From Haplodiscus bocki (Eukaryota), in the NCBI GenBank assembly GCA_965655095.1, contig OZ296659.1:13764001-13828000 (forward strand): a stretch of DNA of 64,000 nt, given 5' to 3'. The notes below the pieces were generated by a model. The model saw only the letters and a program-made list of their open reading frames with translations. It did no database searches and was not told where the DNA came from. Of this stretch, positions 5,101 through 28,900 are shown one piece after another (position 1 is the first letter of the stretch; the number at the start of each line of letters is the position of its first letter). Made by a program: the position numbers and the translations under genes.

Positions 5101-6309
5101 TATAAGATGATTGGCCCTTTTTCGAAGACTGCAAAAACAATGGCACGCAACACAGCTAAGCCAGCAATATAAGCTCAAGTAACATCAGTGACTCTAAGAT
5201 CATGTCCAAAATTCCAGGTCTGAAAAGAAAACGGACACAATCTCGCTTCAACGATATCTTCACCTTAGGCTTCGACGCTAAAAGCAACAATTTTCTTTCA
5301 ACAACTGGTTATGACAAAGTTTACCAGTAGCTACCTCGATTATATTTTTCAAAATATCAATTACTGAAATTTTTTGTGAAACCACCCAGCTTGGAATCTT
5401 TGCAGAAAAAGTTCGAAAATCGGAAGTCTTAGCTTTTGGTTCAAATGAGTTTTTACGTGATGTTACGTATTTTTCATTCGCAACTTTCGGCAGCATTGTA
5501 AAAACCGTAATTTACCAAGTACTTTCTTTGATTAAGAACTAAGTTAATTGAGCCAGTTTTGTTCAACAATTTTTTTCGACTTCCAAAAATTTTTTGGAAG
5601 AGTTCGATCCCAAATAAAATCGAGTCGCTGCCGATTCAAAATAAAAAATAAACCGTGTCTATTTCAAATAATTCGACGCTCCGCGGCATCCCCGTATTCC
5701 TGTGCCAGTCCTTGTCGATTTTTTCCTTGGAAGTGTATGGACCACTCAAGTCGAAAAGTCAATTCACCCCAAAATACTCAGGAACTAAAAAACGGGTGAA
5801 AGAAATTCTAGTAACTCACAAAATCTGTCTTCACTAAACTGTCGAAAAAATCATTCCTTCAATGCCCCATTTATTTTTAGATTCTTATGTAATTATATCG
5901 GCCGAAGATGCAGTTCTGTGATAGCGAAGCGGAACATAAGGCTGTGAAAAACATGAGACAGATGAATATCTAAAGACCTAGCGAACTTACAAGGAAATTT
6001 CAGGCAGACATTTCTTAAATTTCAGGTAGCTGACAATGGTTTGGAAAGAAAATCAGTTTTATAGTAGATAGCGACTCGCAGTTTTAGTCCTGGGGCCATC
6101 ATTTTTTTAGACCGAGGCGAATCTATGCTTCGCAATACGAGTGAACAAATCGACTAAATACAACTAATTTTTAAAGAAGCCACGGTACTACCAATACTAC
6201 TACTATGAGTGAACAAAAACACACTGAATTCTTATACATTTATATACATGTAAGAACCGCCATATCATTTCATTCGCTTCAAAATTTAAAAGAAAAGACT
6301 TGATTCTCA

Positions 6310-9128: not shown

Positions 9129-9561
9129 TTACCCGAACATGACAGTTTGGAGGGAAGCGGTTTTAATACTGTTCTCAAACAGGGCCGCTCTGTTCTGGTG
9201 ATCGCCTCGCTTGACCCAATGGCCATAAATACGAAAGGCACAGCTGTCAATCATTTTTCGAACAACTTTAGAATTGTATGGAGCTTTGCACAGAAGTTCT
9301 GGAGTAACTGGTTTTTGCTGCACTTGAAGTCTAAGTCTAACTATGCTGAGAACTAAAAAGCCAGTTGCTCGCAGTTTTTGACGGGCGTTGAAAGCCTTCG
9401 CTTCGTAATCGACTTCGCTGGGGTTGAAAGTGACAAAGAATTCGTGTTCTAAGGCTTCTGCAGCTGAGATGCGTTTCAAAGGGTCTACTTCCAACATTCT
9501 ACAAATGAGGTCTTTGGCTACGTTCGAAACATCTTCCCATTCAGGAGAATCGAAGTTGTAT
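9129..9561 (-). CDS. PHKG: Phosphorylase kinase gamma catalytic subunit, last coding exon (kinase C-lobe end and calmodulin-binding regulatory tail)
   Basis: Acceptor ttgttccag| (phase 2). Encodes YNFDSPEWEDVSNVAKDLICRMLEVDPLKRISA and the PhK-gamma tail motif IDSCAFRIYGHWVKRGDHQNRAALFEN. Stop at 9129. Confidence 0.93.
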
Positions 9562-9839
9562 CTGGAACAAAAATTCATGAAATTTGAAAAAGTTCAAAGC
9601 ATTTGAGGTAATAACAGTAGTTATTACAGTACAGAAGGTATAGCCAATAACTTAGGTTTTGCAATCATTATCTGTTCTCAAGAACGTGTTTTTTTGTACC
9701 TTTTTGAGGTATGCAGTTTTTACTTGCTTCTTTACCTACCATTAAGCCGCTCAACCCTAAATTGACTTTCCAATTCACATATTGGAATTAAAAGATGGGG
9801 TTGACTACACAATATTTATGTAATCAGGTAATCACGTAC

Positions 9840-10101
9840 CTGCCCTCCATGATCATTCGCAACATCATCATCTGTCGCTTGTGCCAGAAGGGGGGTCTGC
9901 CTGACATGAGGGTGTACATGACCACTCCACAGGCCCACATGTCAGTTGGGCGGCCGTATCCCTTGCTGTCTATGTTCATGGAACACTTTAGCACTTCTGG
10001 GGATAGATATGCTGGAGTGCCCATCAACTCTCGCAGCTCCGTGTCGTGCGAGACAAACGTCGCAAAACCAAAGTCACTGACTTTGATATTCACGTTTCCG
10101 T
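9840..10101 (-). CDS. PHKG: Phosphorylase kinase gamma, coding exon 3
   Basis: Acceptor cttgtttag| (phase 1), donor |gtacgt (phase 2). Encodes VSDFG, LRELMGTPAYLSPE, DMWACGVVMYTL and PPFWHKRQMMMLRMIMEG (PHKG-typical). Confidence 0.93.
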
Positions 10102-11479
10102 CTAAACAAGTAGAATCATTTTTGAAAACATCCCACATGCCAAAGTCAATAAAAAAAGCAACGCGATGAAGACTAAGTTAATCCTATTCAAAGGGGTTAA
10201 TGAAATTCAGCGGCTGAACAAGATAATTGTACAAAAGAGTATTTTGAACGGAACTTCAATGGTCGCGAATACAGATACTTCAATCAGACATCAAAAATCA
10301 TGACAAATTTTGGAAGTAACTTACATTAGAGATAGCTGCTCAAGCAAGCCGGAACGACTCAAGATGGCGCCGCCCGTAAAGCCTAAAGTACATGGATTTC
10401 CGCAGTGTTTTTTTTGGAAAAAAATTGTGGCTTTTCCGTCAAACAATTTGGTATATTCACTTTTTTTCAGGCGGAAATTTCGTCGCACATTACCGAAAAT
10501 TTAGTAGTGATTGTGTGGTATAATATACAATGCTTGAGAGGGTGATCAGTTCAAACATTTTTAGTTTTTCCAAAAAATTTTCGATACATAGAAAGGGTCC
10601 CACGAAAAAATTGTAGACCGAAGTTCCACATTTTTTTTCAAAAGACAAGTGTAAAGAGTATCATAAAAAATGATAGTCTTCTTGAAATTCTTTGGATTGC
10701 AAGAGCAAATAACGGCACTTTTCAATGTCTGCTTTTACAAAAAAATGGAACAATGCAAAAGGGAGTCAAAAGAGTGGCAAATTACAAAATTTTGCAATCT
10801 ACCTTTGCTATATCTTTTGGCTATACCGCGTTTAGGTACGTCTCAAAAACCCTTCACAATAGTCGGTCAGTAAAACGTCGTACACAGCGTGCGCGTCAGT
10901 ATCTTAGAAACCGCTACTATGATAGACCGTATAGTCCCTCCTATACACCCACCCAGCTTTGTTGCGTTTTGAATTTTTTTTTCACACATCGCACGAAATT
11001 CCTTATTTTGGACGAGATCCCAAATGAACAAAAAAAGCGTCAAAATATAACAAAAACCGAATAACACTGAGAGTTTCGTATAATCATCATTTTCCGAAAC
11101 GCTGAAAATAGGAAATCACTGTTTTCAATTGGAAAAGTTCATCTCGCACTGTCGAAAAAATCGCAGGGTTACCCCTTGGTATTATGAAAAACTGTGCTTT
11201 TCGAACATTTTTGGTAAATCGAAAGTGTCATCACAATTTTCGTCTCAAAATACCGAAACAATCCGCGGGGGCACCCTTTGGTGTTCTCATTTCGCATTCT
11301 CAATTTTTCTGCACAGGTCGTACGGTTAGGTATCAGAGAACAGCTTTTTCTTTATCACCTTCCTATGGAGTGTATGAAATCAATCATCATTTCCGTCGAA
11401 CACAAAGTCGAGTCCCACTCACACAGGCGAACTTTTACCTGAATGCAAAGCGCCGGCTAAAACAGAGCCGCCGATAGTT

Positions 11480-13600
11480 CTTGACTTGAAATTAAGTGTG
11501 CGAAGAACAAGTTACAATCGAAAATGAGTCTTAGGAAAATTAGTCTCAAGAAATTAGCGACAATTTAACTGAAGCGAAGGACGCCGCGGAGTGTTAGTTA
11601 CAAGTTATGAGAGCAGATAAGCTGGAAGTCCGGGCAAGTCTGGCTGAGGAAGCTGAAAAAAACCCTGACGCAGTTAGTAGAACAGGAAAATCTAAACTGG
11701 ATACCTTTTCAAGACTCTTGCACATTGCTCCAGCAGAAATTTGTTTCAGTACTTAGAAAGAAAGAACATAAAAGTTGGATGAATGATCATACACTTGAGT
11801 TGATGGAGGCACTTCGTCAGCGAAAAGAACACCATTCGACAAAATTATCGACGAGAAACTTCGCCGGGCATGTGATCTTGCTATGTGCTTAAATATGGAT
11901 CAGAAGTGCGGAGAAATCGAACAGCTACAGAGAGCCAACACCCCCTAAGAGTGCCACAAAAGAATTAAGGAAATGACGGCTAAGAAAACAGCCCGTTCCG
12001 GAGTCCTAGAAAAAAACACTGTGAGATTTTTGACAAAGATGTCAGAAAACCATGAGAGCAGTACATTGGAAAGCTACTTGCGGATTTTCAGAGAACATCT
12101 TCAGCTCACACTTTCTGACCCCCTGTCAGAACCTATATTGAAAAGTATGATCCAAGAAGCTAAAAGGAAGATGAAGAATGGCGAACCATGTGGGGCGAAT
12201 AAATTCCATGTAAACTTTTCAAATTAATGGGTGACGCAGCAGTTGAGGCGTTCACTTCGAATTTCAACATTTGGTACGAAACATATCCCTTCACAATGAC
12301 TTCAAGCGATCTATTTTCTTTCTTTTATCAAAGTCAACTGAAACAACAAAGTGCGAAGACCATCGATTGACTAGCCTAGTGATCAGGCGTTAAAAAGTTT
12401 GCTGGAAAATCTCATAAATCGAATGCAAACAACAATAAAAATGGAATCAAAGCAAACAAGTTGGGCTTCATGGGTGAAAGAGGTATAAAAATGCAACCTT
12501 CCTAATTCGTGTGTTGCGTGAACGGATGATAGAATTAATGATTGACATTTTACTGCTGTTTCTTTGATTACAGCAGGACTTTCGAGAAAGTACACCATAG
12601 CATAACGTTTGAAATTCTAGCCGATCTCGAATTGTATGATAAAGACATTCGACTCTCACAAGAGATATAATTCCAACAAGATGTAGTTGTCAGACACACG
12701 AAAAGCCTGTCAAGTCCCATACCAAGTGAAAGAGGTGTTCTTTAAGGATGTGTTATGCCGCCCGATCTGTTTAACGTGTACACCGAGGCCATTCTGAGGT
12801 CTCTGCAAGATTAGTCAGGCGTAATTGTCCATTGACACAACTTAACAGACATTCAAAATGCAGATGACAGCCCTATTGCAAGCAATGTGCGAGATCTACA
12901 GAACTTTTCGAACTGCGTGAACGAAAAATGTCATGAATTCGATATGGAAATCAACGAGAAGACAACGATAATGAGAATCTCGAAGAACAATGATGCTCCG
13001 GGCGTATGTGTTCAGCTGGATGATTTCTCTTTGAAATATGTTGGCTCCTCTAAATACTGGAGATCGATGATAATATCCGATGGTAGATGTCAGAAAGACC
13101 TGACAACCCAAGTAACAATGGCCAAAAGCGCTTGCAGTGACATAAGGGTATACTCTGAAACCTCACGATGCCTTTTAAGCTGCGGTTCAGGATACTCAAA
13201 TGTTACATCTACCCGATATTGCTCTATGGGTGTGAATAGTGGACTCTATTGTAAGATAATCAGGCCAAAATCGAGGCTACAGAAATTCTTGAGACGAATG
13301 ATGACAATCAGTTGGACAGCGAAAGTGAGAACTGAAGGTGTCCTCCGTATCACCAAACACCGATCTCCCCTCAGATAGGTGGCCAAACAACAAATCAAAA
13401 TTTTTGGACATGTGTTGAGAAAAGTGGAGAATTTAGTGATAACGGGGAAAATTAATGGCAAGAAAACATGAAAAAGATAGAGATGGAGGATGATGGACCA
13501 AATCAAAGCTTGGACTAGTCTAGAAAGAGCGAGGACGTGATCAGAAGAGCAAATTAGAGACAACTAGTGACCGCCGAAGTCAATTGATATGGCATAAGAA
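11480..13600 (+). mobile_element. Decayed RTE-clade non-LTR retrotransposon (RT region) in PHKG intron 2, antisense to the gene
   Basis: Broken RT motifs: KCEDHRLTSL, CCFFDYSRTFEKV, RGVL*GCVMPPDLFNVYTE, IQNADD (YADD), KYWRSMIISDGRC. RTE-like 3' end tgaccgcc...atatggcataagaag. Many stops and frameshifts. Confidence 0.8.
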
Positions 13601-14645
13601 GTTGGGAGAAGATAGCAGAAGTTATTGATAAGTGAAAATAGATGGAAAATAATGATGAACAAATCGTTTCACAGGAGGCAGACGTTGAATTGAGGCTGTA
13701 AGATTTTCGCAGCGACGCAGGGAGCACAGTGTGGGTCGAAAAGAAAAGTTAGGCGCTTCGTTAAAGAAAAATGGGAGAGTAGAGGCCGAGGGAAGACACA
13801 AATGGATGAGCACCGAAGGAAAGCAGCGATTTTGTTGTACAAAGGGACTTGGCAAAAGACGGGTGTATGGGTGTTAGAAAAAGACAAAGTCGATGATTCC
13901 CAAGAAACTTGTCATAACGAGGGAATGCGTGAGAGATAATTATCTAAGGAGGTAAAGTAGGAAATAGTACACAATGAACCTGACAAAGTTATTGATTTGG
14001 ACGACTTGGAAATTGTCGGACCAAAAGCCTCAGCTTTTTGAACGGAACCAAGACCATCAAGCGGATTTGATGACGAAATGTGACTGAGAACAACACATGA
14101 TTCTACGGAAATCGTGTTCATCCGCAATGTGCCAGAGGAAGTCGCAACAACTTAGAGCCCCCAGAAGACAATTATAATTTGAATGAACGGTACATACTGA
14201 GTTGAGCTTAATGTTGATATCCTGTTTATCCTATATCCTATCTCTTATCCTATTTATACAAGCCAATAGTTCCTTGTTGATTGGACAGTTAATATTATTG
14301 GACATTATTGAAAAAAAATCTTTTTAATGTAATTGAGTAATGTAGTAAAGCGCCAGCTCGCATGATGATCTGAAATAGAATTGGTGTTACAAGTTGTTGA
14401 CAGATAGTGATACACACGAGGTGCGATTTCTAATATTGTTACTTTGGCATACTACCGAAAGCGAGGATGAGATTAATACACTCTTTTGAATAAATTGTTT
14501 AACTCATCCAACCCGATAACGAGTGCACACAAATATGCTATTGAAAATATTCAGAAAAATTAATCTTCCGATATCGGGGAAATTACACTCATTAAAAAAA
14601 TGAACGTGTTTGTCTGAAAAATTTGTATGAGTGCAAATGACTGAC

Positions 14646-14883
14646 CAAGTAGGATGTTTTCGGGTTTAATGTCTCGATGGACGATGAACTTGCTGTGCAT
14701 GTGGGCAAGAACTGAGAGTAGTCTGTGCATGATCTGTCTCGTCTTCTTGCTAGAAACCGTGACCACTCTCGTCATGTAGTCAAACAGTTCTCCCTGAGGA
14801 CAAAATTCCAGCACCAGGAAAATGAACGATCTAGTCTCAAACGACTCGTGCAACAATATTACGTTCTCGTCACCACGCATCTC
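14646..14883 (-). CDS. PHKG: Phosphorylase kinase gamma, coding exon 2
   Basis: Acceptor ggtctttag| (phase 0), donor |gtcagt (phase 1). Encodes FIFLVLEFCPQGELFDYM and the catalytic loop IVHRDIKPENILL. Confidence 0.93.
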
Positions 14884-15923
14884 CTAAAGACCGGAAACAA
14901 ATGAGAGTCGACTATTGAGTCGCCTTTTGAATAAAGATTTCACAAAAACTACGTCTATTAACATCGACAGACTTTTCGTCCTCAACTGAGGACAACCATT
15001 TCTCCAGAATCAATTGAAGATTACACAATACGAAAAGGACACTCAAAAACGAAAGTTTGTTTTTATTCTTGCAATTGATTGGGCTAAGCATGATGAAAGT
15101 ACACTTCATCGATCGAACCTTTCTCCAAACTACTCGAAAAAAAAACGCCGATTTTTGGTAGATTTTTCGATTTCTCGTTGGACTGACGCGGCGAAAAAAA
15201 CGAACATTTTCACACATCATTTGTAGACTAATCATATAATAAAGTTTAGCGCGATTTTTCAAAACCAGAGCTTTTTGGAAAAAATTATTAAATTTCCCAG
15301 AAAAAGAATGCACATTATGAATGATGTACTCATACTCCAAATCAAATTTCTATGTAATTATACTCTTGAAATCAGCATCTCACTCTAGCTAGGTATAGTT
15401 TCAATAATGAATGAAAAGAAGAGGGGAGTATCAATCATTCACGAAATGACCACAAAATTGAAATTTGTACAGATTGTGTCTAAAAGTGAAGTTAGGACAG
15501 TCACGCACGTTGTTGACTGGTCCTAACACGAGAACCATGATGTCAACAAAAATGTGACCGAGCATTTTTTGACTTGATTTGTAAATTTTTTAAAGAGGCG
15601 AAACTGGGCTTAACAACACTTGCACCAGCAGAATACTAGTGAACAAACCAAACAATATGACTGATTTTTGAAGGCGCCATGATAAAACGAAACTACTGAT
15701 CAAACAATTAAAACAGAAATTTAATTAAGTCGGTTAATTCTTTACAAACTTATATACAAATGTAACAAGTACGAACAGCTATACCAGTTATCTCCCTTTA
15801 TTTTTAAAACAAGGGCGCACGCTGGAAAATAGGCCATTTGAACGATTTTTCGCAACTGCGAGAGCGCATGAACGAAATCTAGGCAACATTACAATGAAGG
15901 CACAAAAGCGACTTGTGAATGTA

Positions 15924-15974
15924 ATCGGAGAAGAAGAATCAGAAGCCTGTGGTATAACACCTGCTTGCGCAAGT
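15924..15974 (+). repeat. 3' fragment of the same SINE family as 6310-6480
   Basis: atcgga.aagaa...tataacac.tgcttgcgcaagt is shared with 6429-6476. Confidence 0.55.
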
Positions 15975-15992
15975 CAATGATCTTTCACGTAA

Positions 15993-16606
15993 GTAAGGGG
16001 CAGTACCGAGAATCGTAAGGGGCAGTACCGAGAATCTCCATATTCGTATTATAGCGTCCCTTAGCGTGGGGAGCTATTTGTTGTGGTTATTTTTGGCTAA
16101 GACTTGAATTATGCGGCTACCTTTCTAAGTAAAAATGTATTTCTTCCAGGTATAAAGAGTTGAATTTTTTGTTAAACGAGAACTCACATTTCAGATGAAG
16201 GTTTACAGCAGAATGATTACAAATATTTCCAGCAAAATTGTTTACAGCATTAAAACGATTACAAACTTATAGTTGTTCAAAAATTATTGGGAGCGATTAT
16301 AAATGTACTTCTAATCCATTAGAAATTGCCGACAAGCGGCGTGACTTGAACATTCGGTCAAACGAAAACAATTATTCAGCGCAAGCTTAGCCAATAAATG
16401 CAATATTAGAGAGTCGCGGTGATACGAGGGGGGATGATTAACATTACTGCATCAGGATTAAATGCGAAGGAAATTTAAGCACTACAAAATGGCAGGCCCG
16501 GAAATAAATGTGCACTGAGAAAAATAAATAACCGAAAAGAAATACTAAATTGACTTTTGCGTAAATAAAACGAGAAATGTTTTCTGTTTGTGTTTGTTAT
16601 ATTACA
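15993..16606 (-). repeat. Putative 3' LTR (~600 bp)
   Basis: On the minus strand it starts TGTAA at 16606, right after the purine tract aaagaaggg (16615-16607), and ends ...ccccttac. The terminal 22-mer gtaaggggcagtaccgagaatc is tandemly duplicated (15993-16036). No second LTR is present to confirm the call. Confidence 0.55.
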
Positions 16607-16677
16607 CCCTTCTTTGAAGAATGCGTCCGCGCATGATGAAAGAAGCTGAGGGGAAGGGTGGGTGAGAGAAGAAGTCA

Positions 16678-17440
16678 TTACAAGAGGTCGTCCAAGGATT
16701 CGTACAGGGGTCTGGGGTTACAGTGGCGACAAAAATGTGTTGTATCTTTACGATTGACGGCACGAATGCCGCAACAGTCGTAAATTTTACGGGTTGTGGG
16801 GTCCACTATAATGTTGTGAATGGCTACAAGTTGCCGGGAGATGTTTCGATCAACACCGGGATTACGATCTGGACTACAGAGGCGGATTAATTGATGGTAG
16901 TGCTTTTTAATATCGGCGGTGGAAGTGTGGCGGTCAGCGGCTAAAACTGTGTAAAGGAAATTTGTGGGCGTAACTTTGTCCATGTATACGATGTCAGGCA
17001 CGGTCAATTGATAAAGAAGCTGGTGTAGGAAGGGGAGAGCTTGACCGTCCGCATACAGATTAGCAACTTGGGTTCGGAGATCAGAGATCGTATCCTTTGA
17101 ATCAGCGAGGTTCCTGTCGTCGAGGCGTTTCTGGCGGGTCATTTCTTCGAGGGACCGCAGTGTGTCTTCGTAAGTTTGTTTCTGTTTTTCGAAGGCTATC
17201 TCTAGCCGATGAACCGACGCTTTTTGTGCTCCCAACTCCTTGCGAGTGTCAGCCAAAACCTGCTCAAGTGTTTCTACAGCTTCATTTTTTTTCGATGGGC
17301 GGCAAATTCAAGGTTTTCGAAGCTGTCAGTGTAGCACGAGACGGAAGTTTGAATGGGGGTTGTCATCATGCCGAAGTCTGCAATGTCTGGTAAGACAGGA
17401 GGAGGGGTGAGGGCGAGTAAAAAGGCAGTTCACAATCCAT
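16678..17440 (-). pseudogene. Accessory gene: coiled coil + DnaJ-like domain + Cys-rich tail (open frame 17256-16678; upstream part needs two frameshifts)
   Basis: LYTVLAADRHTSTADIKKHYHQLIRLCSPDRNPG...LVAIHNIIVDPTTRKIYD matches the J-domain consensus (Y.vLgv...as..eIKkaYr.la...HPDkN...i..Ay.vLsDp.kR..YD). Heptad region upstream. ATG at 17440 (MDCELPF). Confidence 0.75.
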
Positions 17441-17661
17441 CGGCTCGGTGTTGATAGCCAGAGATTGGAGATTTTTCGGGGAAGTCGCATTTGGGTGAGA
17501 AGAGACCTGATTTCTTGCTTCCCATCGCTGGAAACACCATGAGACTGTCTGATGTGGGGTTGCAGCGAAGAACACGATAAGGGGTGGGGTCGATGAGAAA
17601 CACAATAGAACCGGACTAAGAGTCAGCAGCAGAAGAAGCACTGGGCAAAGCAGAAGAGAAC

Positions 17662-17685
17662 CTGAAACAGAAAATAATTAAAACC
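17662..17685 (-). promoter_or_regulatory. Candidate splice acceptor ahead of the J-domain gene
   Basis: ggttttaattattttctgtttcag|G on the minus strand: branch-like ttaat, pyrimidine tract, CAG. Confidence 0.55.
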
Positions 17686-17738
17686 TTTTTTTGGGCAAAG
17701 TAAAAAAGACAAAAAAAAACAGTGGGCGACAAAAAAAA

Positions 17739-18139
17739 CTCGTGCCAAGCACGGAACTACAGCAGAGCTGTGAAATGCCTAATCTGGTGAAATACACACG
17801 GAACTGCAGCAGAGCTGCGGGACTCCTATCCTCGTGGGGAAAACCACGGAGAAAAAAAAGTGCGAAGTAGATGTCTCGTGAGTGAGTCACGGAAAGCGTA
17901 GCGGGGCTATGCCCTGAACTACTGGAAACCAGCGGAAACTCGTGGAAAACCACGGAAAGCCTAAAACCTCTTCAGCAGAGCTGAAGGATGAGAAGGGGAA
18001 CCTATTCTCAAGTGTTACACTCACAGTTCCAAGACTGTGGACCTAAACTTTCTCGGTGGAAAAGGCACCGGTAGGACACGTAAAAAATAAACTCGATACT
18101 AAAGTATCGGAAAACTGATCTCGGCGGCTGAGCACCGAT
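17739..18139 (-). other. Array of ~13 short stem-loops of two types with compensatory substitutions
   Basis: Type A, CT-stem-loop-stem-GA: 17739, 17784, 17831, 17875, ~17920, 17939, 18020, 18052, 18092, 18120 (the 17784, ~17920, 18052 and 18120 copies deviate). Type B, cagc-aga-gctg: 17759, 17806, 17970, plus variant tagc-ggg-gcta at 17899. Confidence 0.75.
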
Positions 18140-18164
18140 AAATGATAGACGTAGAGGTTTGAAA

Positions 18165-20463
18165 TTATGTCGCCGAGGTGTAAACATCAGTTATGTCAGG
18201 ATACAAGGGGTTCTGAGGAGGAACGCATGAGGTTATTTCTGTGTCACTTCGAGCAAGGAATTCGCGGGCCAATCCTTTGACAGCCAGGAATTCAGCATCC
18301 GTCATGCACAGGAAAGCTGTTGTTACGTCGTTATCATCGTCGTTCAGGTTAGGAACAATGTGTAGGAATCGGCCGTGCGTGCCGCGGAAGAACCGTTGTG
18401 GGTGTTTGAAGAGACGTTGCCACTGACGCCGGAAGAGCGTAAAACTGATGCTGAAAGAGAAAAGAGAAATAGTCATGGATACACATGCCAGTCAGAAAGC
18501 AGTCCGCATAGGCATGTAATCTGCTAAAGCACGACTGGTGTAAGGAGAAATTGTCGTGTAATAGTGTGAAATTGGTTGGGCCACTGTGCGAAGATCCTCG
18601 TTGGTCATTGTTTTCACGTGGGGCAAAGCTGCCAACTCCAATTGTACGCTAGAAACAATCTCTCTGCAGGCTTCACCAAATGAATACACGTTCAAATCGC
18701 CGCTGGCAGGAGGTGGGGATTAAAGACTGCAGCCAAAGAAGGTGTGAGTTTGACTGATGCAACGAACGGCTCGGGTCGGGTTTCACAAAAGTCCATATCG
18801 GGGGTAAGAACAAGATCCCCGTGATTGAAGGTGAGTGTGGACGAACAACTGGGTCGAATAAGACATGCTTGACACTGGAGGGTGGATATGGATACAGGTA
18901 AACCATCGGTGTCGTTTTTGACCTGTAAACGAGCAGTACGAGATATAACGTGATAAAGACCATCCGCTATATAGGAAGCTTGCGGGGCCTCAGGCAACAA
19001 GACAGAGTCCACTAAACAATTGCGAAGAGCTGGGATGCTGTACTCAAAAAATAGAGACGTTAGGCAAAGAAGAGTTTCATCAGTTGTGGTAGAAAAACCT
19101 TTACTGCATAATTTAATTCGATTTGTTCCAGAACATTAACTGAGGGTAGTAGCACTCAATTCAGCATACTGTGAGTTATCAGTAGCGATGGCCATGAACT
19201 CATGAGAGAAACGATAAACCGAAGCTGTCGTACCATCCTCGTTGGGTTGATGCAAAGGAATGGCGCAATAGGCATCGAAGGTGGACGATTTTGAGTTCAT
19301 CGGTATACCTAAGACAATGGAGAGGCCTTCTTGCAAAACAGTGATTTCGAGCACAATTTGGACTTCATAGTAGGTATCCTCAAAACCAACTTGAATCGCG
19401 GGTGTCAACTTCGTACCTCGGCGGATCTCTTCGGCGGTAAGGTCCTCGACGATTGCAGCAAGTTGATCGGAAGTGAGGAAATTAGGTGGAACAAATCCAG
19501 AAGAGCGAGGACACTGCGGAATACATGGAGGTCTTACATAACACAAATGAAGCACGATAAGATTTCAAATGCATAGAAGCAAGGTCCAAGTAGGACGTGT
19601 AATTGTGGACTTTGTCCACAATGATTTCGAAGTGACGCTGGATACTCATGCAATTACTCATAATGATAAACTGGGAATCGAGTTGACGAATGGCTTATCC
19701 TGTAGCATCTAAACGGGCATCGATAACGTCTCGTGAGGCTTCAACGCTCTTCTGGTATCAGCGATTTCTGTGCCCAGAAGGAAAAATTTTTCGTTATTGG
19801 CTTGTTGGACGCGATGGAGACTTTTCTCAAAGGCAGCCTGACGCTGAAGTAGATTGCGCACATTGTTCTTCAAAACGGAGTTATCACTGCATAAGCTAAA
19901 GATGGAAAGGGCTTTGCAGGCAGCATTTCGTGAAACAAGACCGGCGACACCAGAGGCTGCCATGAGTGCGGGAACAAGTCGTCGTTGTCGATGATGAGGA
20001 GTGCCAATAGAAGGAGGCTGCATTGGGGGTGGTGCAAATGAAGATGCAACACGTAAGAGTTCAGCGTAATCTTGTGCAATAGCAGAACGTTCATCCGCAA
20101 GCAGGTGGACACGATATTCAGTACTTTCTCGGAGGCCATTGGCTCGATCCAGGGAGGTGTACATAGCGATTGCGCAGGGCTCGTCAGACGCAACTGTTTC
20201 TAGAAAGGGCAAGGAGGTTAATTTGTTGTGAATGTTACTGACGAGATCAATAAGCGAATCGACTGCTGTTAAATCAACTGGTGGCAGCTTTGGAAAAGGA
20301 GAAAAGACACGAACTTTGCTTTCACTTTCTGAAGTGACGGCTTGATAGTTATAAATGAACGCAGCGCCTTTTTGGATAATTGGAGTGCCATCTGTAGGAG
20401 GACCATCGGGAACAAACTGTCTCACAGGGACATTGGATACGAGAAAAAAAACGTTAAAAACAT
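18165..20463 (-). pseudogene. env: Envelope class I fusion glycoprotein (baculovirus F / errantivirus env-like), disrupted
   Basis: Hydrophobic signal (MFLTFFF..), furin site HHRQRR, fusion peptide LVPALMAASGVAGLV, heptad repeat LKNNVRNLLQRQAAFEKSLHRVQQAN, Cys-rich ectodomain, TM LACVSMTISLFSFSISFTLF + RRQWQR, cytoplasmic tail. Split over ORFs 19709-20425, 19136-19555, 18692-19012, 18492-18695 and 18165-18476. Confidence 0.8.
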
Positions 20464-20859
20464 GTTAGAAAGCAAAATAGGAACAAAAATCGAGAAAAAA
20501 CTATGGAAAAAATTAATTCTGAATTCACGGGTGATAAAATTCAAACTAAATGCTTACAACAAGAAAAAAAATACTTCTAAAACTTCTAAATCAGAATGTC
20601 AGCTTTTTACGTTTCAAAATTTTCGGCTTTCATCTTCCCAAGTGCTTAATACCGTGCTTAACACCCTCATTTTGATATCCAACGATTGAAATCTTAAATT
20701 GATTTCTAGCACGTGTTAAAAACAGACCATGTTAGTTTTCTGCCCACTCTGCTAAAAATGGGGTAACCTTTGATTAGAAAGCAATAAACCAGTGCAAAGT
20801 ACCAGCAGAAAAACATTTATTACGATAAACTTTCTTCAATAGAATGTCTATTAGCAAAC

Positions 20860-21129
20860 CTTGAGAATGACAATTTCGCGCTTTGTTTCGTCCACAATTT
20901 TCTTGCCCTCGTCCGATCCGATATCAATAATCTTCACCGCATACTCATCACCTGTAGCTTTTTCTACACATTTTCTGACCACACTCACCAACCCCCTGCC
21001 CAACACCTCTCGGGGCTCGTAGCGGGCATAGAACTCGGCCCCGTCCTCTTCGCAGGGCAAGTCAGCACCCCCTACAACCATGGGCACACCACCGGCAGAG
21101 GTGGCGTTTGCTGATTCAATTATAGTCAT
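20860..21129 (-). CDS. PHKG: Phosphorylase kinase gamma, coding exon 1
   Basis: ATG at 21129 with an in-frame stop upstream at 21174. Encodes EFYARYEPREVLGRGLVSVVRKC and YAVKIID. Donor AAG|gtttgc (phase 0). The four exons total 1203 nt, i.e. 400 aa. Confidence 0.9.
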
Positions 21130-21787
21130 TGCTGCTGGTACCAAAGCTAAAGGATTCGCAAAGGGGTTCGTTCATTACAGCTGATTCAAACGGCGGCTGA
21201 CAAAGCAGTCCTTGGCTACAGTACATTTCATCACGACATTTTTAATCTAAAAAAAACGAAATGAATCATCTAAATACAGTACTCTTGTTAATTCGTATTC
21301 GGATATCAGTTTAATTCGCATTTGATTTCAGACAATAGTGACGGCAATCATGTATTAAGATCTCTGTGAATTCTTATTATTGCTCGTAATTCGTACAATG
21401 TCATACGGTTCCTAGCGCAACTAACTAGCATGATTCCGCTGCGTCTGCTTTTCAAATTACACCTAATCTTTTTGGGCATAAAACCTTATTGATGTTTAAG
21501 AATGCAAATATTTTTCTCGAAAGGAAACCATTTTATTACGAAATTTCGTTCAAAAATAGAGCTCACCAAACAAAAAACACCCCTTTCTTACACAAAGGAA
21601 CGTTGAATGACCTTGCCAATTTTTGCTTAGCAATTCAGCCTCTCCTTGAAAGAAAAAAGAAAACTTGAAAGACTCAAATGACTTCCTGAGATACTAATTT
21701 GAAAAGAAAATTGAATGGCCCATATGTATATTTCTCATTTCAATTTTCCCAGGCAATTATTTCAAATAAAAGACATTCAAACAAATT

Positions 21788-24241: not shown

Positions 24242-24341
24242 TGTAAAAACACTGATAATATTAATATGTATATTGTGAAACCCCACCGACAATCACTATA
24301 TCTGAAATAATACAGTATTTACATGAGGTACAAGTACAACA
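24242..24341 (-). repeat. Copia 3' LTR
   Basis: 98/100 identical to 28801-28900. Confidence 0.95.
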
Positions 24342-24589
24342 TACTGCTATTAATTTACCGTTTTTGTTGTTCATCTTTGTTGTCATCATCTTTGTTTCCA
24401 GAGATACAATAACCCGGGAAAAGGGATATCCAGTAATCCAAAGTATATAATCAAATACCCAGTAACACGCAAACCAGAATGTATAATAAAACGTTGCAAC
24501 AATAAAATAAATATCGAACCAAAACAATAAGATACTTTATCCAAGAGTAACAGGAACATAAAGAAAAGTAAGAAACTTGATCAAATTGT

Positions 24590-27500
24590 CAGACGCACGA
24601 GCTGAAAGCTTTGTTAAACAATCGGCGACCTCTTTGTCAGACGGTACCCAATAAAGTCGATTAACAGACCCAACATCAATATGAGACCGAAGACAAGGTA
24701 TCTCGACTCTCAACCCTTTGTCTTTTGGTTGAATATACGTTCTCCACTAAAGAACAACTGTCAGTATAAGCGTTAACTTTAAGCCTTTGCGTTGTTAATT
24801 CGAGAACCAATTTATGGCAAACAAGTGCTGCCTCGATTCCATTACAACAGGCAACAGTTTCTGCAAATAAAGTACTGCGAACGACTCGTCTGAGCTTCTG
24901 AGATCTCCAACTGAGTAAAGCTGGTTTACATCCAGGCTGATTAATGAATACCAGATAACCAGCTTGAGTACCCCCACAAGGAAGGTTACCAAATGACGCA
25001 TCTGTAAAACGTCAATGGAAAAATGTTCTGATAAATTGCTAAATTTCTGATAAATAAGGCATAAATCCGATGAAAACTTTAGCTTTCGTACGATTTTGTT
25101 TGCAGCTAAGAAATGACATCTTTGCCATTGACCGGCAAACGATAATAACGATGAAACAGCAAACGCAATATCAGGTCGAACCTGACAGGCAATCCATTGA
25201 AGTTTACGAAGTAAAGCACGTAAATCACGCATGTGAAATTTGTCGGCAGAAAGGAAATCGACTGAAACTTCTTTTACACCCGACAAATAGGCGGACAAAT
25301 CAAGTCGGATACAATTGTCTGTTTGAGAAATCTCAAAGCCCGAATAAGAAAAAGGAGTTTTCTGACTAGAGCGAACATCAAAAACTTCATTCAGCTTATC
25401 AATCACCTCGCACTTAAACGAGACATTTCCAGCCCATAAGAAATCATCCACATGAGTAGCTATCAAGCCGTACACGTCGCCCCGAGAATCTTTCTTGTAA
25501 AACAAACAAGGATCATACATTGACACGATACACCCGACATTCAATATTTCAGTTTTAACTCGGTCATACCAGTGACGCGCTGCGTCAACCAAACCGTAAG
25601 TACACTTCTTCAGTTTCCAAAGAACACCGACAGGAGCAAAACCAGCTGGAGGCTTGATAAAAACATCTCTCCGCAAGTCACAACCTTGTAAGAAAGCCGT
25701 ACGTATGTCCATAGTATTACACATCCACTGCATATAGGAACAAAACCAAATAAAAACTCGCAACGTGTCTTTTGCGCAAGTGGGTGAATCTTTTACGACT
25801 TGGTCTAAAGCAGGGTCTTCAAAACCCCTGAGTACCAAACGCGCTTTCTTTCGATCCGGCTTTGGGTCAGAACCCAACGACACGTCCTGAATGGTTGTCC
25901 AAGATCATCAACTTCTTCATAAACCGCTTTGGATTTCCAATTAGCTAGCTCGTCCAGTTTGGCATCTTTGTATTCATCCACAGTAGTGATGAAGCATTGA
26001 TCCGCATCAGTTGAACAACATACATCGGATCAATAAAGCGGATACATCGACATAATCAGTCTGACCAGCCAATTTTTGAGGAGACTGATAAATCACGTTC
26101 CACCAATCAGAAAACTCTCCAGTGGCTTTTCCACCTCTGCTCTTCACAACGGCAGTTATCTGTCTGCCATCAAAGTCTGGTACACGTGAAACAAATTTCA
26201 GTGTTTTCCCGATACATTCGGTTGAACTAAAGACTCCACATTTAAAGGTGTCGCTTGATCAGGCTCCGAATTAACCTGTTCATGGTCAGGCGAAGAAAGA
26301 TCAGGAATGGGCAACTGAGACTGCAAGGTAGATTCAACAACAGGCTCCTCCTCGTCGGAAGAATCACAATCAGGAGATGCAGATGCAGGGACATCCGACA
26401 ACACTTGAGAACTCGTCATTGTTTCCGCGCCTCCTGTTAAATCATCAGAGGTGGCTGTAGAATCATTACAGGAGGAACTCGAATTTGAATTGGACACTGA
26501 AAAACGCAATTTGGTACGGTGAACTTTGCACACTTTACCGCCTTGCTTAACATATACAACAGCTCCATCTTGGCCAATAACAAAACCTGGACCTTTCCAT
26601 CGATCATCTGACTCACGTTTGTAAAAAACGCGATCACCCAAAACAAATGGACCATTGTCATAACGAAAATTTGACTTCAGTGCCCGCTTAATCCCGTTAC
26701 TAATATCCGCTTCAATGAAGAACTGTCTGGCTTCGTTCAACTTGAACAATAATTTTGACACCGATTCACTAGTGGTAGTGCACTCAAGAGCCGGAGGCTG
26801 ATTAGTAAATATGGAAGGTAATCGTGGTCCGCATCCAAATGCAATCTGATACGGAGAAAACCCATCATGGTTAAGCATGCTGTTCTTAGCGAAAACAGCA
26901 GTTTTGAGTGCAGTTTCCCGGTCGTATTGATGTGAATCATCAGAGATAAGCCGGTTAAACATATCAGTGAGTACAGCGTTATGGCGCTCAACAACACCAT
27001 TTGACCACGGCGAATACGCTGCAGTAGTTTTCATGACAATATCGACATTTTCTGCGAAAGAATGAAAATCAGCGTTATCAAACTCCCCTCCGTTATCAGT
27101 CAAAACAGCTTTTGGGTAACCGAAAGATAAACACCAGTTACGGAAAAATTCGGTAATGGTGGTAGTCGGCCGTTTATTAGTAATGAACACTGCTACTGAA
27201 AAGCGACTGAAAACATCAATCATGTGAAGGTACCATAAAGAAAGACCAGAACCACTAACTTCATGTAAATGAAGTGAAACAGTGTGGTTCCATTCTTGGG
27301 CCAGCGGTAACCCCACAACAGGCCTCGGAAGATCACGGCCGAAACGCTGGCAGACATCGCAATCATTCATAACGGACTTCACTTGATCAACTGTTACAGA
27401 CACACCCGCTTTTCTCAGTAACGCGTGTAATTTTTCACTGCTACAATGAGCAAATTGTTTATGTAATTTCTCAATCTGAGAATCATCAACAACTTGAGAC

Positions 27501-28782
27501 ATTGCTAAACAACTAGCAAACACAGTTCTGTCGAAACTAAAATCAAGAAGGAGGTGTCCACTGGTGGACATAGACAGCTGTATGGGGAACTTCTCACTGG
27601 TATACAATGTTTTGTTCGCAAAATCTATCTCGAAACAAGCTTTAGTCATCGAGCCAACACTAATCAATAACGGTAGATCTCCAGGTATCACAAAAACAGT
27701 CAGCATAAACGAGGTATCCCCAAAACGAATAGGAATTGTATACTTCTTCTTAGCACAGACTCGATAACCGCCCCCATAAATGATGTAAGAATCAGATGGC
27801 TGAACAGACACTAGTTCGCGTTGCTCAGGAGAAAGTCTGTTAAGATAGTTCTCCATCCAGGTAAAACCAGAAACAGTAACTGTACAAGCAGAGCCAAGCA
27901 CACCTTTACCAAAAGATTCCTGTAACAGAGAACCTGTAACCATCGCCAAAATAATATAAGCTGTGCCATCACCAACATCAGTTTCACGAACTTTCTTCGA
28001 TTCTGCATCGGCCTCCTGAGAAACATGCGCCGATTTTTCTTTATCAGGACACGCGTTGGCCCAATGGACACGTGAACCACAAACTGCACATGTAGAAACT
28101 CGACCATCCTTGTTCAGAGGATTTGTTCCAGTTGGTCGACTTCCTTTCTTACCACTGAATTTGGTATTGGGACGTTGATAAATCTTTAACTCCCACCCTG
28201 CCCAGATGCAAACACTGGCTCCTCCTTTATAATCTGAGTAGCGTCACTTGGAACAGACACACTCGCAACGGAAGAAGAGGAAATCCTGCGTAAACTAGAT
28301 TTCATTTCTTCATAAGTCACCTGTGGAGTTGCAGATAAAGCCAATTTCTTGTCCCGCTCATCCAAATCAGAACAAGAAAGCAACTTCCAGGCCAAAACTG
28401 CAGGAGGAAGCACTAACTCGTGTTTAACTAATTTCTGGTACAAAGAATCAAATAAAGTGATATACTCAGTAATTGGCTTGTTTCCACGACGAAGTTTTTG
28501 AAACATTTCATAATCATGAAACATTTCATCGACAAGGTCTCGTCCAAATAAAGACTTTAATTTATCCAGTAACGTCTTTAAGCCTGTCTCGGCTTTCAAA
28601 TCTGCTAAAGGGATAGCTCTAGCGGCCTCGCGCTTAGCACCTGTTAATGATAAAGCTACAGCGGGAGCCTTTTTTTCTTCTGCCAAACCAGTAACGGCAT
28701 CCCACATTTCCACTTCCGTCTTCCAAGACTAATCTAAGTCGGGTCCCCATGCCGGTGGGGTTTTGTAATTGGTGTGGGACAT
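24590..28782 (-). pseudogene. Copia gag-pol polyprotein with stops and frameshifts
   Basis: ATG at 28782. Zn knuckle CAVCGSRVHWANAC. Protease motif mutated to LGSAC. Integrase LHKQFAH..CDVC, IDVFSR, TDNGGEF, VERHN. RT KARLVLRGFED, YGLVDAARHWY, HVDDF. RNase H end VADCLTK. Confidence 0.93.
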
Positions 28783-28800
28783 CTGCTGCTCCTGCTACCA
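28783..28800 (-). promoter_or_regulatory. Primer binding site complementary to the initiator tRNA-Met 3' end
   Basis: tggtagcag(gagc) directly follows the 5' LTR; animal tRNAiMet ends ...CUGCUACCA. Confidence 0.85.
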
Positions 28801-28900
28801 TGTAAAAACACTGATAATATTAATATGTATAATGTAAAACCCCACCGACAATCACTATATCTGAAATAATACAGTATTTACATGAGGTACAAGTACAACA
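28801..28900 (-). repeat. Copia 5' LTR
   Basis: Matches 24242-24341 and is flanked by the TSD GTAAC. Confidence 0.95.

Follow-up and report, generated by a model that had tools for sequence, protein, structure and literature searches.

An env-Bearing Ty3/Gypsy Element with a J-Domain Gene

The window analyzed here, by which we mean the whole stretch of 64,000 nucleotides, carries at positions 16050–20445 the 3′ part of an env-bearing Ty3/Gypsy LTR element, which lies on the minus strand, as do all features of this element described below. This copy is a decayed relic, in which both env and the J-domain gene are broken, and which ends near the start of env, without gag, pol, or a 5′ LTR. In the sense direction, it comprises an env gene (18165–20445) for an F-type fusion protein with a furin site, interrupted in this copy by several stops and frameshifts, an array of hairpins (17739–18139), and a J-domain accessory gene (16678–17661) encoding an SH3-like barrel, a Pro/Ser-rich linker, a coiled coil, a J-domain, and a Cys-rich tail, followed by a polypurine tract (16602–16615) that adjoins the 3′ LTR (16050–16601, about 554 nt). 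Within the J gene, the region coding for the predicted SH3-like β-barrel spans 17474–17639 (coordinates assigned by homology to other copies), and the J-domain coding region spans 16777–16956 (Pfam DnaJ, E 7e-9); the window gene has a frameshift in its 5′ third and an altered J motif. It is preceded by a predicted 3′ splice site (17662–17674), a pyrimidine tract with its AG at 17663–17662, and the LTR appears to hold, at 16182–16191, a copy of the predicted 5′ splice site AT/GTGAGT (the slash marking the splice point). The LTR has TATA at both ends, not TG..CA.

Longer copies of 12.4–12.9 kb, bounded by 554-nt LTRs (97–99% alike in most pairs) and 4-nt target duplications, contain in order gag with two CCHC knuckles, pol, F-type env, the array, the J-domain frame, and the 3′ LTR. 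The order within pol is PR-RT-RNase H-integrase, as in Gypsy elements, and the two LTRs, target-site duplication, primer-binding site, and polypurine tract identify these copies as errantiviruses in the wide sense. The F-type assignment of env is based on a basic cleavage (furin) site ahead of a hydrophobic stretch and on a profile match to the fusion protein of PDB entry 9w4d (E 7e-8); the Baculo_F profile matches 2 of 16 aligned env homologues and not the family's own env. Matches of env to haemagglutinin HA2 were discounted as weak coiled-coil matches. When the array DNA was searched against its own genome, a match was found at all 40 places scored, among 195 candidates. Three more groups of elements, families B, C, and D, were found by an env search, and the window element is assigned to family A.

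The window element sits inside an intron of a phosphorylase-kinase-gamma-like gene (9129–21171, minus strand), in the same orientation as its host, so that exonisation of its acceptor and of the donor in its LTR is possible. Positions 24242–28900 of the window contain another LTR element, of the Ty1/copia type (RVT_2, with integrase before RT), with 100-nt terminal repeats that are 98% alike.

Flanked Hairpins between env and the J Gene

The array is made up of about a dozen small hairpins (7–13), separate from one another and strung along U/C-rich linkers between the env stop and the J-gene acceptor, and it is kept in 67 family copies. The first-pass annotation had listed seven CT-stem-GA strings on the plus strand, and these are indeed found at 17739, 17831, 17875, 17939, 18020, 18052, and 18092. 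Reading the unit on that strand is, however, not borne out, since the element is transcribed from the minus strand, where the unit becomes C[stem]AG, or more fully C[stem-loop]AG. In all, positions 17730–18140 contain ten perfect stems of at least 5 bp, at 17741–17753, 17759–17771, 17806–17818, 17833–17848, 17877–17891, 17941–17954, 17970–17986, 18022–18039, 18054–18070, and 18094–18109, and all ten have, on the plus strand, CT before and G after them, with exact CT..GA flanks in eight. The separate second type of hairpin that had been proposed dissolves on this count, as the hairpins at 17759, 17806, and 17970 carry the same flanks and are of the same type; only the hairpin at 17899 (17896–17914) lacks them, and one of its U-A pairs is U-G in 14 of 28 aligned copies. 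Three further units complete the picture: one at 17919–17935, with a sense-strand G-U closing pair, which is replaced in one subfamily by another C[stem]AG hairpin; one at 17784–17802, decayed in the window copy and paired in most other copies; and the first unit behind env (18120–18139, about 30 nt from the stop), which is also decayed here.

In 1000 dinucleotide shuffles of the array region, the mean number of hairpins was 1.46, of which 0.043 had CT..G and 0.015 had CT..GA flanks; the maxima were 6, 2, and 1, respectively, and the observed values were reached in none of the 1000. The flank-constrained hairpins thus exceed chance in the shuffle control that had been proposed for them, whereas hairpin density by itself is unexceptional, with other AT-rich 411-nt tiles of the window reaching 17. 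Both strands of the 64 kb together contain 15 CT-stem-GA hairpins, and 8 of these 15 fall inside the array. It is therefore the flank rule, and not hairpin density, by which the array stands out. Counts of single units have to be read with care: the commonest unit gives 545 matches genome-wide versus 382 for the reversed control, which is uninformative by itself, and six C[stem]AG units occur by chance in 7.3 kb of one J-less element, such that only clusters of units count.

Folding and Strand

Rfam covariance models gave no match at E 5 in window positions 15500–21000, nor at E 1 in five loci. Each strand folds better than its shuffles (z of −3.3 for the minus and −4.8 for the plus strand). 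In six of nine regions, the better fold is that of the antisense strand, and folding energy is not decisive for the strand. Internal pairs that are G-U on the sense strand, and fixed there, are found in 3 of 3 cases in family C, 5 of 8 in family D, and 14 of 28 in one A subfamily, and pairs that are A-C on the sense strand in 4 of 8 cases in family B and 2 of 3 in family C. A UUCG loop, which is a stable loop, closes a unit in one A subfamily. We favor the sense RNA mainly because of the position of the array relative to the splice sites discussed below.

Variation among Copies

The 67 copies aligned comprise 30 from a search with the DNA of the array and 37 of the 40 from a search with the J protein; the three left out (L079, L080, and L087) are missing all or most of the array. 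Alleles common to at least four copies occur in 23 of 124 stem columns, as compared with 116 of 214 columns in linkers and 32 of 55 in loops, while rare alleles per cell are near equal in the three classes (0.027 in stems, 0.025 in linkers, and 0.018 in loops). The Fisher values for the depletion of shared alleles in stems (7e-11 and 4e-7) overstate the effect, because neither columns nor copies are independent. Depletion of shared alleles together with equal rare alleles fits selection on the stems during replication, followed by neutral decay of the inserted copies, as judged from the alignment.

At three units, the A of the AG is replaced by C across whole subfamilies (14, 22, and 5 of the 67 copies), with the 5′ C and the following G unchanged. 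As this exchange occurs while the C and G stay, it suggests that these two form a C-G pair beneath a bulged base at the foot of each unit.

The stems had been described as covarying, and this holds between units and between families, where stems differ while pairing is kept, but not between copies at one position: among 28 copies, 5 of 67 pairs show a double change, as compared with 3.0 ± 1.6 in shuffles, 75 of 500 of which are as high, and in family B none of 83 pairs does so. Several A units are clear duplicates of one another, one subfamily is missing a block of units, and the double changes are single-copy events.

In 9 of 15 copies picked because they looked deleted, most or part of env is gone and the array is kept, with three types of deletion junction, each in two or three copies, and at least 250 nt of array are present in 35 of the 40 J-selected loci. 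This retention is weak support, since env is a five times larger target and single-copy deletions of the array exist. Separately, eight copies (L023, L025, L026, L028–L030, L077, and L078) are recombinants in which J-gene types have been swapped at about the acceptor, with the array unchanged, and LTR middles have likewise been swapped.

Predicted Splicing and Leader Units

Most J frames have no start codon of their own, and open instead at a pyrimidine tract and AG. All 30 close copies and all 20 copies of families B–D keep this acceptor in one and the same phase, and it is present in 31 of the 40 J-selected copies. In five LTR types, a matching donor, AT/GTNAGT, precedes the end of the LTR by 140–191 nt. 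Each of the 18 family-A LTR matches that span the site has it (with the last base altered in one), as do a second A-type LTR in which the sequence around it differs (six copies) and families B, C, and D, while the pattern was not found in three J-less elements. The AT of the donor and the first G of the exon give an in-frame ATG, and the subfamily in which the exon begins with A has an ATG of its own there. We thus predict from these sites that the J mRNA is spliced from the LTR donor to the J acceptor, with AT + G making the start codon. In four sequencing runs that behave as DNA, no donor-to-acceptor joint is present among the matches listed, which speaks neither for nor against this splice.

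In families A–D, the array lies between the env stop and the J acceptor, that is, inside the predicted intron. As four J families keep the donor and an in-frame acceptor, the J mRNA is predicted to lose the array on splicing, while genomic and env RNA would keep it. For env itself, one family-A copy starts directly behind an AG, and a pattern search for an env acceptor found none in six other upstream pieces, so that env splicing rests on this one copy and on precedent; springer-type Drosophila elements (the springer subclade) splice env from an AU dinucleotide, according to the available part of PMC12992720.

The C[stem]AG unit is not restricted to the array. The leader of family A contains three such units 145–300 nt behind the primer site, a number reached in 0 of 150 shuffles, and that of family B contains two (reached in 2 of 150), such that the two families have two to three units each at 145–490 nt behind the primer site, and the motif is present near both ends of the predicted intron in these families. 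The leaders of families C and D have no hairpins of either array type. We also observe a C[stem]AG hairpin of 8–9 bp inside pol, ahead of the RT core (L039, about position 5360), in three of five A copies scanned, which may be a further site.

Sister Families and a Second Hairpin Code

Family B is about 60% identical to family A in env and 31–33% in J, and it serves as an independent test, because the C[stem]AG pattern was defined on the window. Each of the two B regions tested has seven C[stem]AG units, for shuffle means of 0.04 and 0.02, and the median over eight B copies is six units. The B stems are unrelated to those of A and carry the same flanks, with blastn similarity between A and B limited to the acceptor. 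Over the six A and B regions tested, the flank rule gives 7–10 units each, with shuffle means of at most 0.12.

Families C and D (52–57% identical in env and 23–27% in J) have no C[stem]AG units. They have, at the same place, four to five hairpins with G-UNUC-C loops, for shuffle means of at most 0.02, a pattern that was set only after the C and D families had been seen. The hairpin row has thus been built anew, independently, in the sister families. Among more distant env families, a J or barrel match was found in 0 of 18 loci, and the distant J-less families have no array in the 10 loci for which hairpins were listed.

By hairpin code, A thus pairs with B, and C with D, a split that is also found in the RT tree. 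The coexistence of two hairpin codes in one genome points to a reader encoded by the element, as the first-pass annotation had offered as a possibility, and we consider such a reader probable; the IRES that it had listed among possible functions is unlikely, as discussed below. The barrel follows this grouping, with identities of 66% between C and D, 40% between A and B, 22–23% between A and C/D, and 33–34% between B and C/D, while the NC knuckles are grouped differently from the hairpin code (B-D 83%, A-B 55%). A comparison of these groupings leans toward J over NC as the reader, for four families with one split. We note that B is only slightly nearer to A than to C/D in its barrel. Whether an array is present or not does not tell J and Gag apart in this regard, because the J clade also has a distinct Gag, with two knuckles as compared with one in the J-less relatives, and array versus no array is therefore a single confounded contrast.

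The J Protein

In the AlphaFold model, a barrel of four to five strands forms the N-terminal part of the J protein, and behind it come a linker that is disordered, a helix some 100 residues long, the J-domain, and conserved cysteines. The J proteins of families A and B score above the Pfam DnaJ cutoff, and those of C and D below it. Across 18 aligned proteins, the H and P of the HPD motif are nearly invariant and the D is invariant, the window copy having an altered motif.

The barrel is SH3-like, with KOW (Spt5/NusG), UBE2O, Tudor, PWWP, and chromo domains as its best matches, all of them tied and weak (Foldseek E of 0.017 at best, Z of 7.2 at best). The alignment with NusG gives a Z of 7.1 (rmsd 2.1, 52 aligned residues), and that with Spt5 a Z of 7.0 (rmsd 3.0, 58 aligned), scores that are level with those for UBE2O, Tudor, and chromo folds. 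As the fold matches are tied and weak, binding of RNA by the predicted barrel is no more than a possibility. Fold searches with the J protein return J-domains and SH3-like barrels, and no Rev or CERV-like chain is present among the matches listed. Sequence matches of the barrel profile to designed Pizza proteins in the PDB were dropped, having no passing stretch, and an ESM Atlas search gave no usable match. Searches for J homologues gave 43 and 82 matches, all in ENA records; a metagenome scan returned one DnaJ locus, which is unrelated.

Possible Function of the Array

Taken together, the flank rule, the pattern across 67 copies, and the sister families bear out the earlier suggestion of a multivalent cis element between env and the J-domain gene, and show it to be under selection and defined by its structure. 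We are highly confident that the array is real, selected, and structure-coded, and consider it likely that it acts as RNA. Among the functions listed at first pass, control of splicing or export fits the layout best, as far as can be judged from the arrangement of genes and predicted splice sites.

The reading that we put forward, tentatively and at a little under even chances, is one akin to Rev, in which the J protein would bind the hairpins and hold back splicing or drive export. Joining of the LTR donor to the acceptor that follows the array would create the ATG, and would remove the primer site, the leader, gag, pol, env, and every hairpin. The J protein, with its predicted SH3-like barrel, long coiled coil, and HPD-bearing J-domain, would thus be made from a fully spliced mRNA. 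Its barrel would bind the foot of each hairpin, formed by the 5′ C and, on the 3′ side, the bulged base and the G, and oligomers formed through the coiled coil would load onto the array and the two to three similar leader units. On an array loaded in this way, nearby splice sites would be held back, or the intron-bearing genomic and env RNA would be exported, with the J-domain recruiting Hsp70 to build or strip the complex. The element would thereby change over, in the manner of Rev, from making J mRNA to making genomic and env RNA.

A packaging or dimerisation signal read by Gag, with leader units and array marking genomic RNA for encapsidation, is an unlikely alternative. The region behind the primer site is the classic place of packaging signals, and the A and B leader units lie there in numbers that shuffles seldom reach; the array is kept in env-deleted copies; and the J clade has its own two-knuckle Gag. 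However, the hairpin code departs from the NC knuckles, which are most alike between families with different codes (B and D) and less so between families that share one (A and B), for the four families compared; env mRNA would carry the array too; and the leader units are absent in C and D, with the main array set behind env.

Host proteins could instead read the hairpins and U/C-rich linkers, for which we see a similarly low likelihood. They might do so in CTE-like export, in an RSE-like shield of the long env 3′ UTR from nonsense-mediated decay, or in damping of the J acceptor, with Py-C[hairpin]AG units imitating 3′ splice sites. This would suit a first unit so close behind the env stop, the pyrimidine-rich linkers, and the many units that resemble YYYCAG once the hairpin is looped out, and host-read elements of such kinds have been described (PMC10309623, in the part available). 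Yet a single host should impose a single code, and A/B differ from C/D; at some units, entire subfamilies have C in place of the A of the AG; and Rfam gives no match.

That the array acts at the DNA level, as single-stranded hairpins in reverse transcription or as palindromic protein sites of an enhancer or insulator, appears quite improbable. Perfect inverted repeats are present on both strands, the antisense often folds equally well or better, and one CGTG/CACG stem recurs at least five times in family A, but the arms are unrelated between A and B and the hairpin spacers span 2 to 9 nt, which is ill suited to a double-stranded DNA site, and the position of the array follows the splice sites. 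An IRES or translational element for the J frame has very little in its favor beyond a structured intergenic region upstream of that frame and the IRESs of Drosophila gypsy (PMC4276936, in the part available), because most J frames have no initial ATG and open at an acceptor that is conserved, as is the donor matching it; the hairpins are, moreover, short and unconnected. Finally, a neutral origin by tandem duplication and reverse-transcriptase template switching, to which the duplicate A units, the block loss in one subfamily, and the single-copy double changes would conform, is largely refuted and hardly credible given stems depleted of shared alleles, the same flank rule on unrelated stems in B and in leaders, and arrays at this spot only.

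Relation to Known Systems

If J-protein binding to the hairpins is taken as the working model, the nearest counterpart is the CERV protein of Cer1, an LTR retrotransposon of Caenorhabditis elegans, an accessory protein from a spliced mRNA that is needed to export unspliced genomic RNA and that, like the J protein, has coiled-coil and Cys-rich parts (PMC10309623, in the part available). CERV differs in having H, M, and G-protein-like domains, with no J-domain or SH3-like barrel mentioned in that part (PMC10309623). The main text of that paper makes no mention of a stem-loop, response element, or cis-acting element, whereas in the present case a candidate RNA target is visible, being known from sequence alone.

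The layout also resembles HIV-1 Rev/RRE, and is here predicted, in that unspliced and partly spliced RNA retain the element, which is missing from the fully spliced mRNA of the regulator, with multimeric loading (PMC10309623, in the part available). The candidate regulator is unrelated to Rev in its build, and carries an Hsp70 co-chaperone domain. The HIV-1 RRE is one branched structure within env, in contrast to the row found here, in which 7–13 small and separate hairpins follow env and the code is specific to the family.

The CTE and SPRE are located near the env 3′ end. Together with the RSV stability element, the CTE of MPMV and the SPRE are likewise retroelement cis RNA elements that raise export, stability, or expression, but they are recognised by host factors or consist of sequence motifs (PMC10309623 and PMC8579622, in the parts available), whereas here the code varies between families of one genome. 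Errantiviruses with an F-type env are likewise gag-pol-env Ty3/Gypsy elements (PMC13524379, in the part available), to which the present elements add a fourth, J-domain gene and the array; a subgenomic exon spliced from an AU dinucleotide, as in the springer subclade, is predicted here for the J gene. DnaJ is absent from the main text and seven supplementary files of that paper. A term search of PMC5408684 found no J-domain gene or such array, and we found no description of either in an LTR element in the literature covered, bioRxiv supplements being beyond that coverage. PMC8616336 was set aside, as the J protein that it deals with is one of the host.

The retention and export of unspliced RNA by LTR retrotransposons outside vertebrates is a largely open field, in which CERV is the sole invertebrate Rev-like protein that we found in print, its RNA target being undescribed in the available part of PMC10309623. 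Here, a candidate regulator and a candidate target adjoin in four families with two hairpin codes, and binding and cross-family specificity can therefore be put to the test on short RNAs and a domain of 60 residues. Through a J-domain gene in an LTR element, Hsp70 would become linked to the control of retroelement RNA. The broader proposition, that an invertebrate errantivirus clade independently evolved the regulation of a complex retrovirus, with a splice-born J protein, a family code read by the barrel, oligomerisation on the array, and recruitment of Hsp70, is one that we regard as possible but on balance doubtful. If it were true, the sister families would provide orthogonal protein-hairpin pairs, as natural counterparts of the MS2/PP7 tags.

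Further Features of the Elements

Some other features of these elements were observed in passing. Between RNase H and integrase, the pol region of one copy (L039:4782–9998) contains a macrodomain-like insert (Pfam Macro, E 0.032), the motif of which is present in families A, C, and D, while the same pattern finds none in B. Family D has a fifth frame of about 205 residues with a basic C-terminus behind the J gene (L103:2491–3105; also L104, L105, L106, L107, and L110), for which Pfam gives no match. J-less env families (L116, L119, L121, L128, and L112) have other accessory frames of 220–330 residues behind env, which are deleted in many copies, and the two of these tested have no Pfam match.

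A small hairpin with a loop ending in GGA (16621–16634 in the window; also L091–L128) lies just ahead of the polypurine tract, and is present in J-less relatives too. It was matched in 16 of 20 B–D loci and 18 of 18 J-less env loci, and in the copies inspected it is found just before the polypurine tract or the LTR start, with stems that differ between groups, making it a possible plus-strand priming or packaging element.
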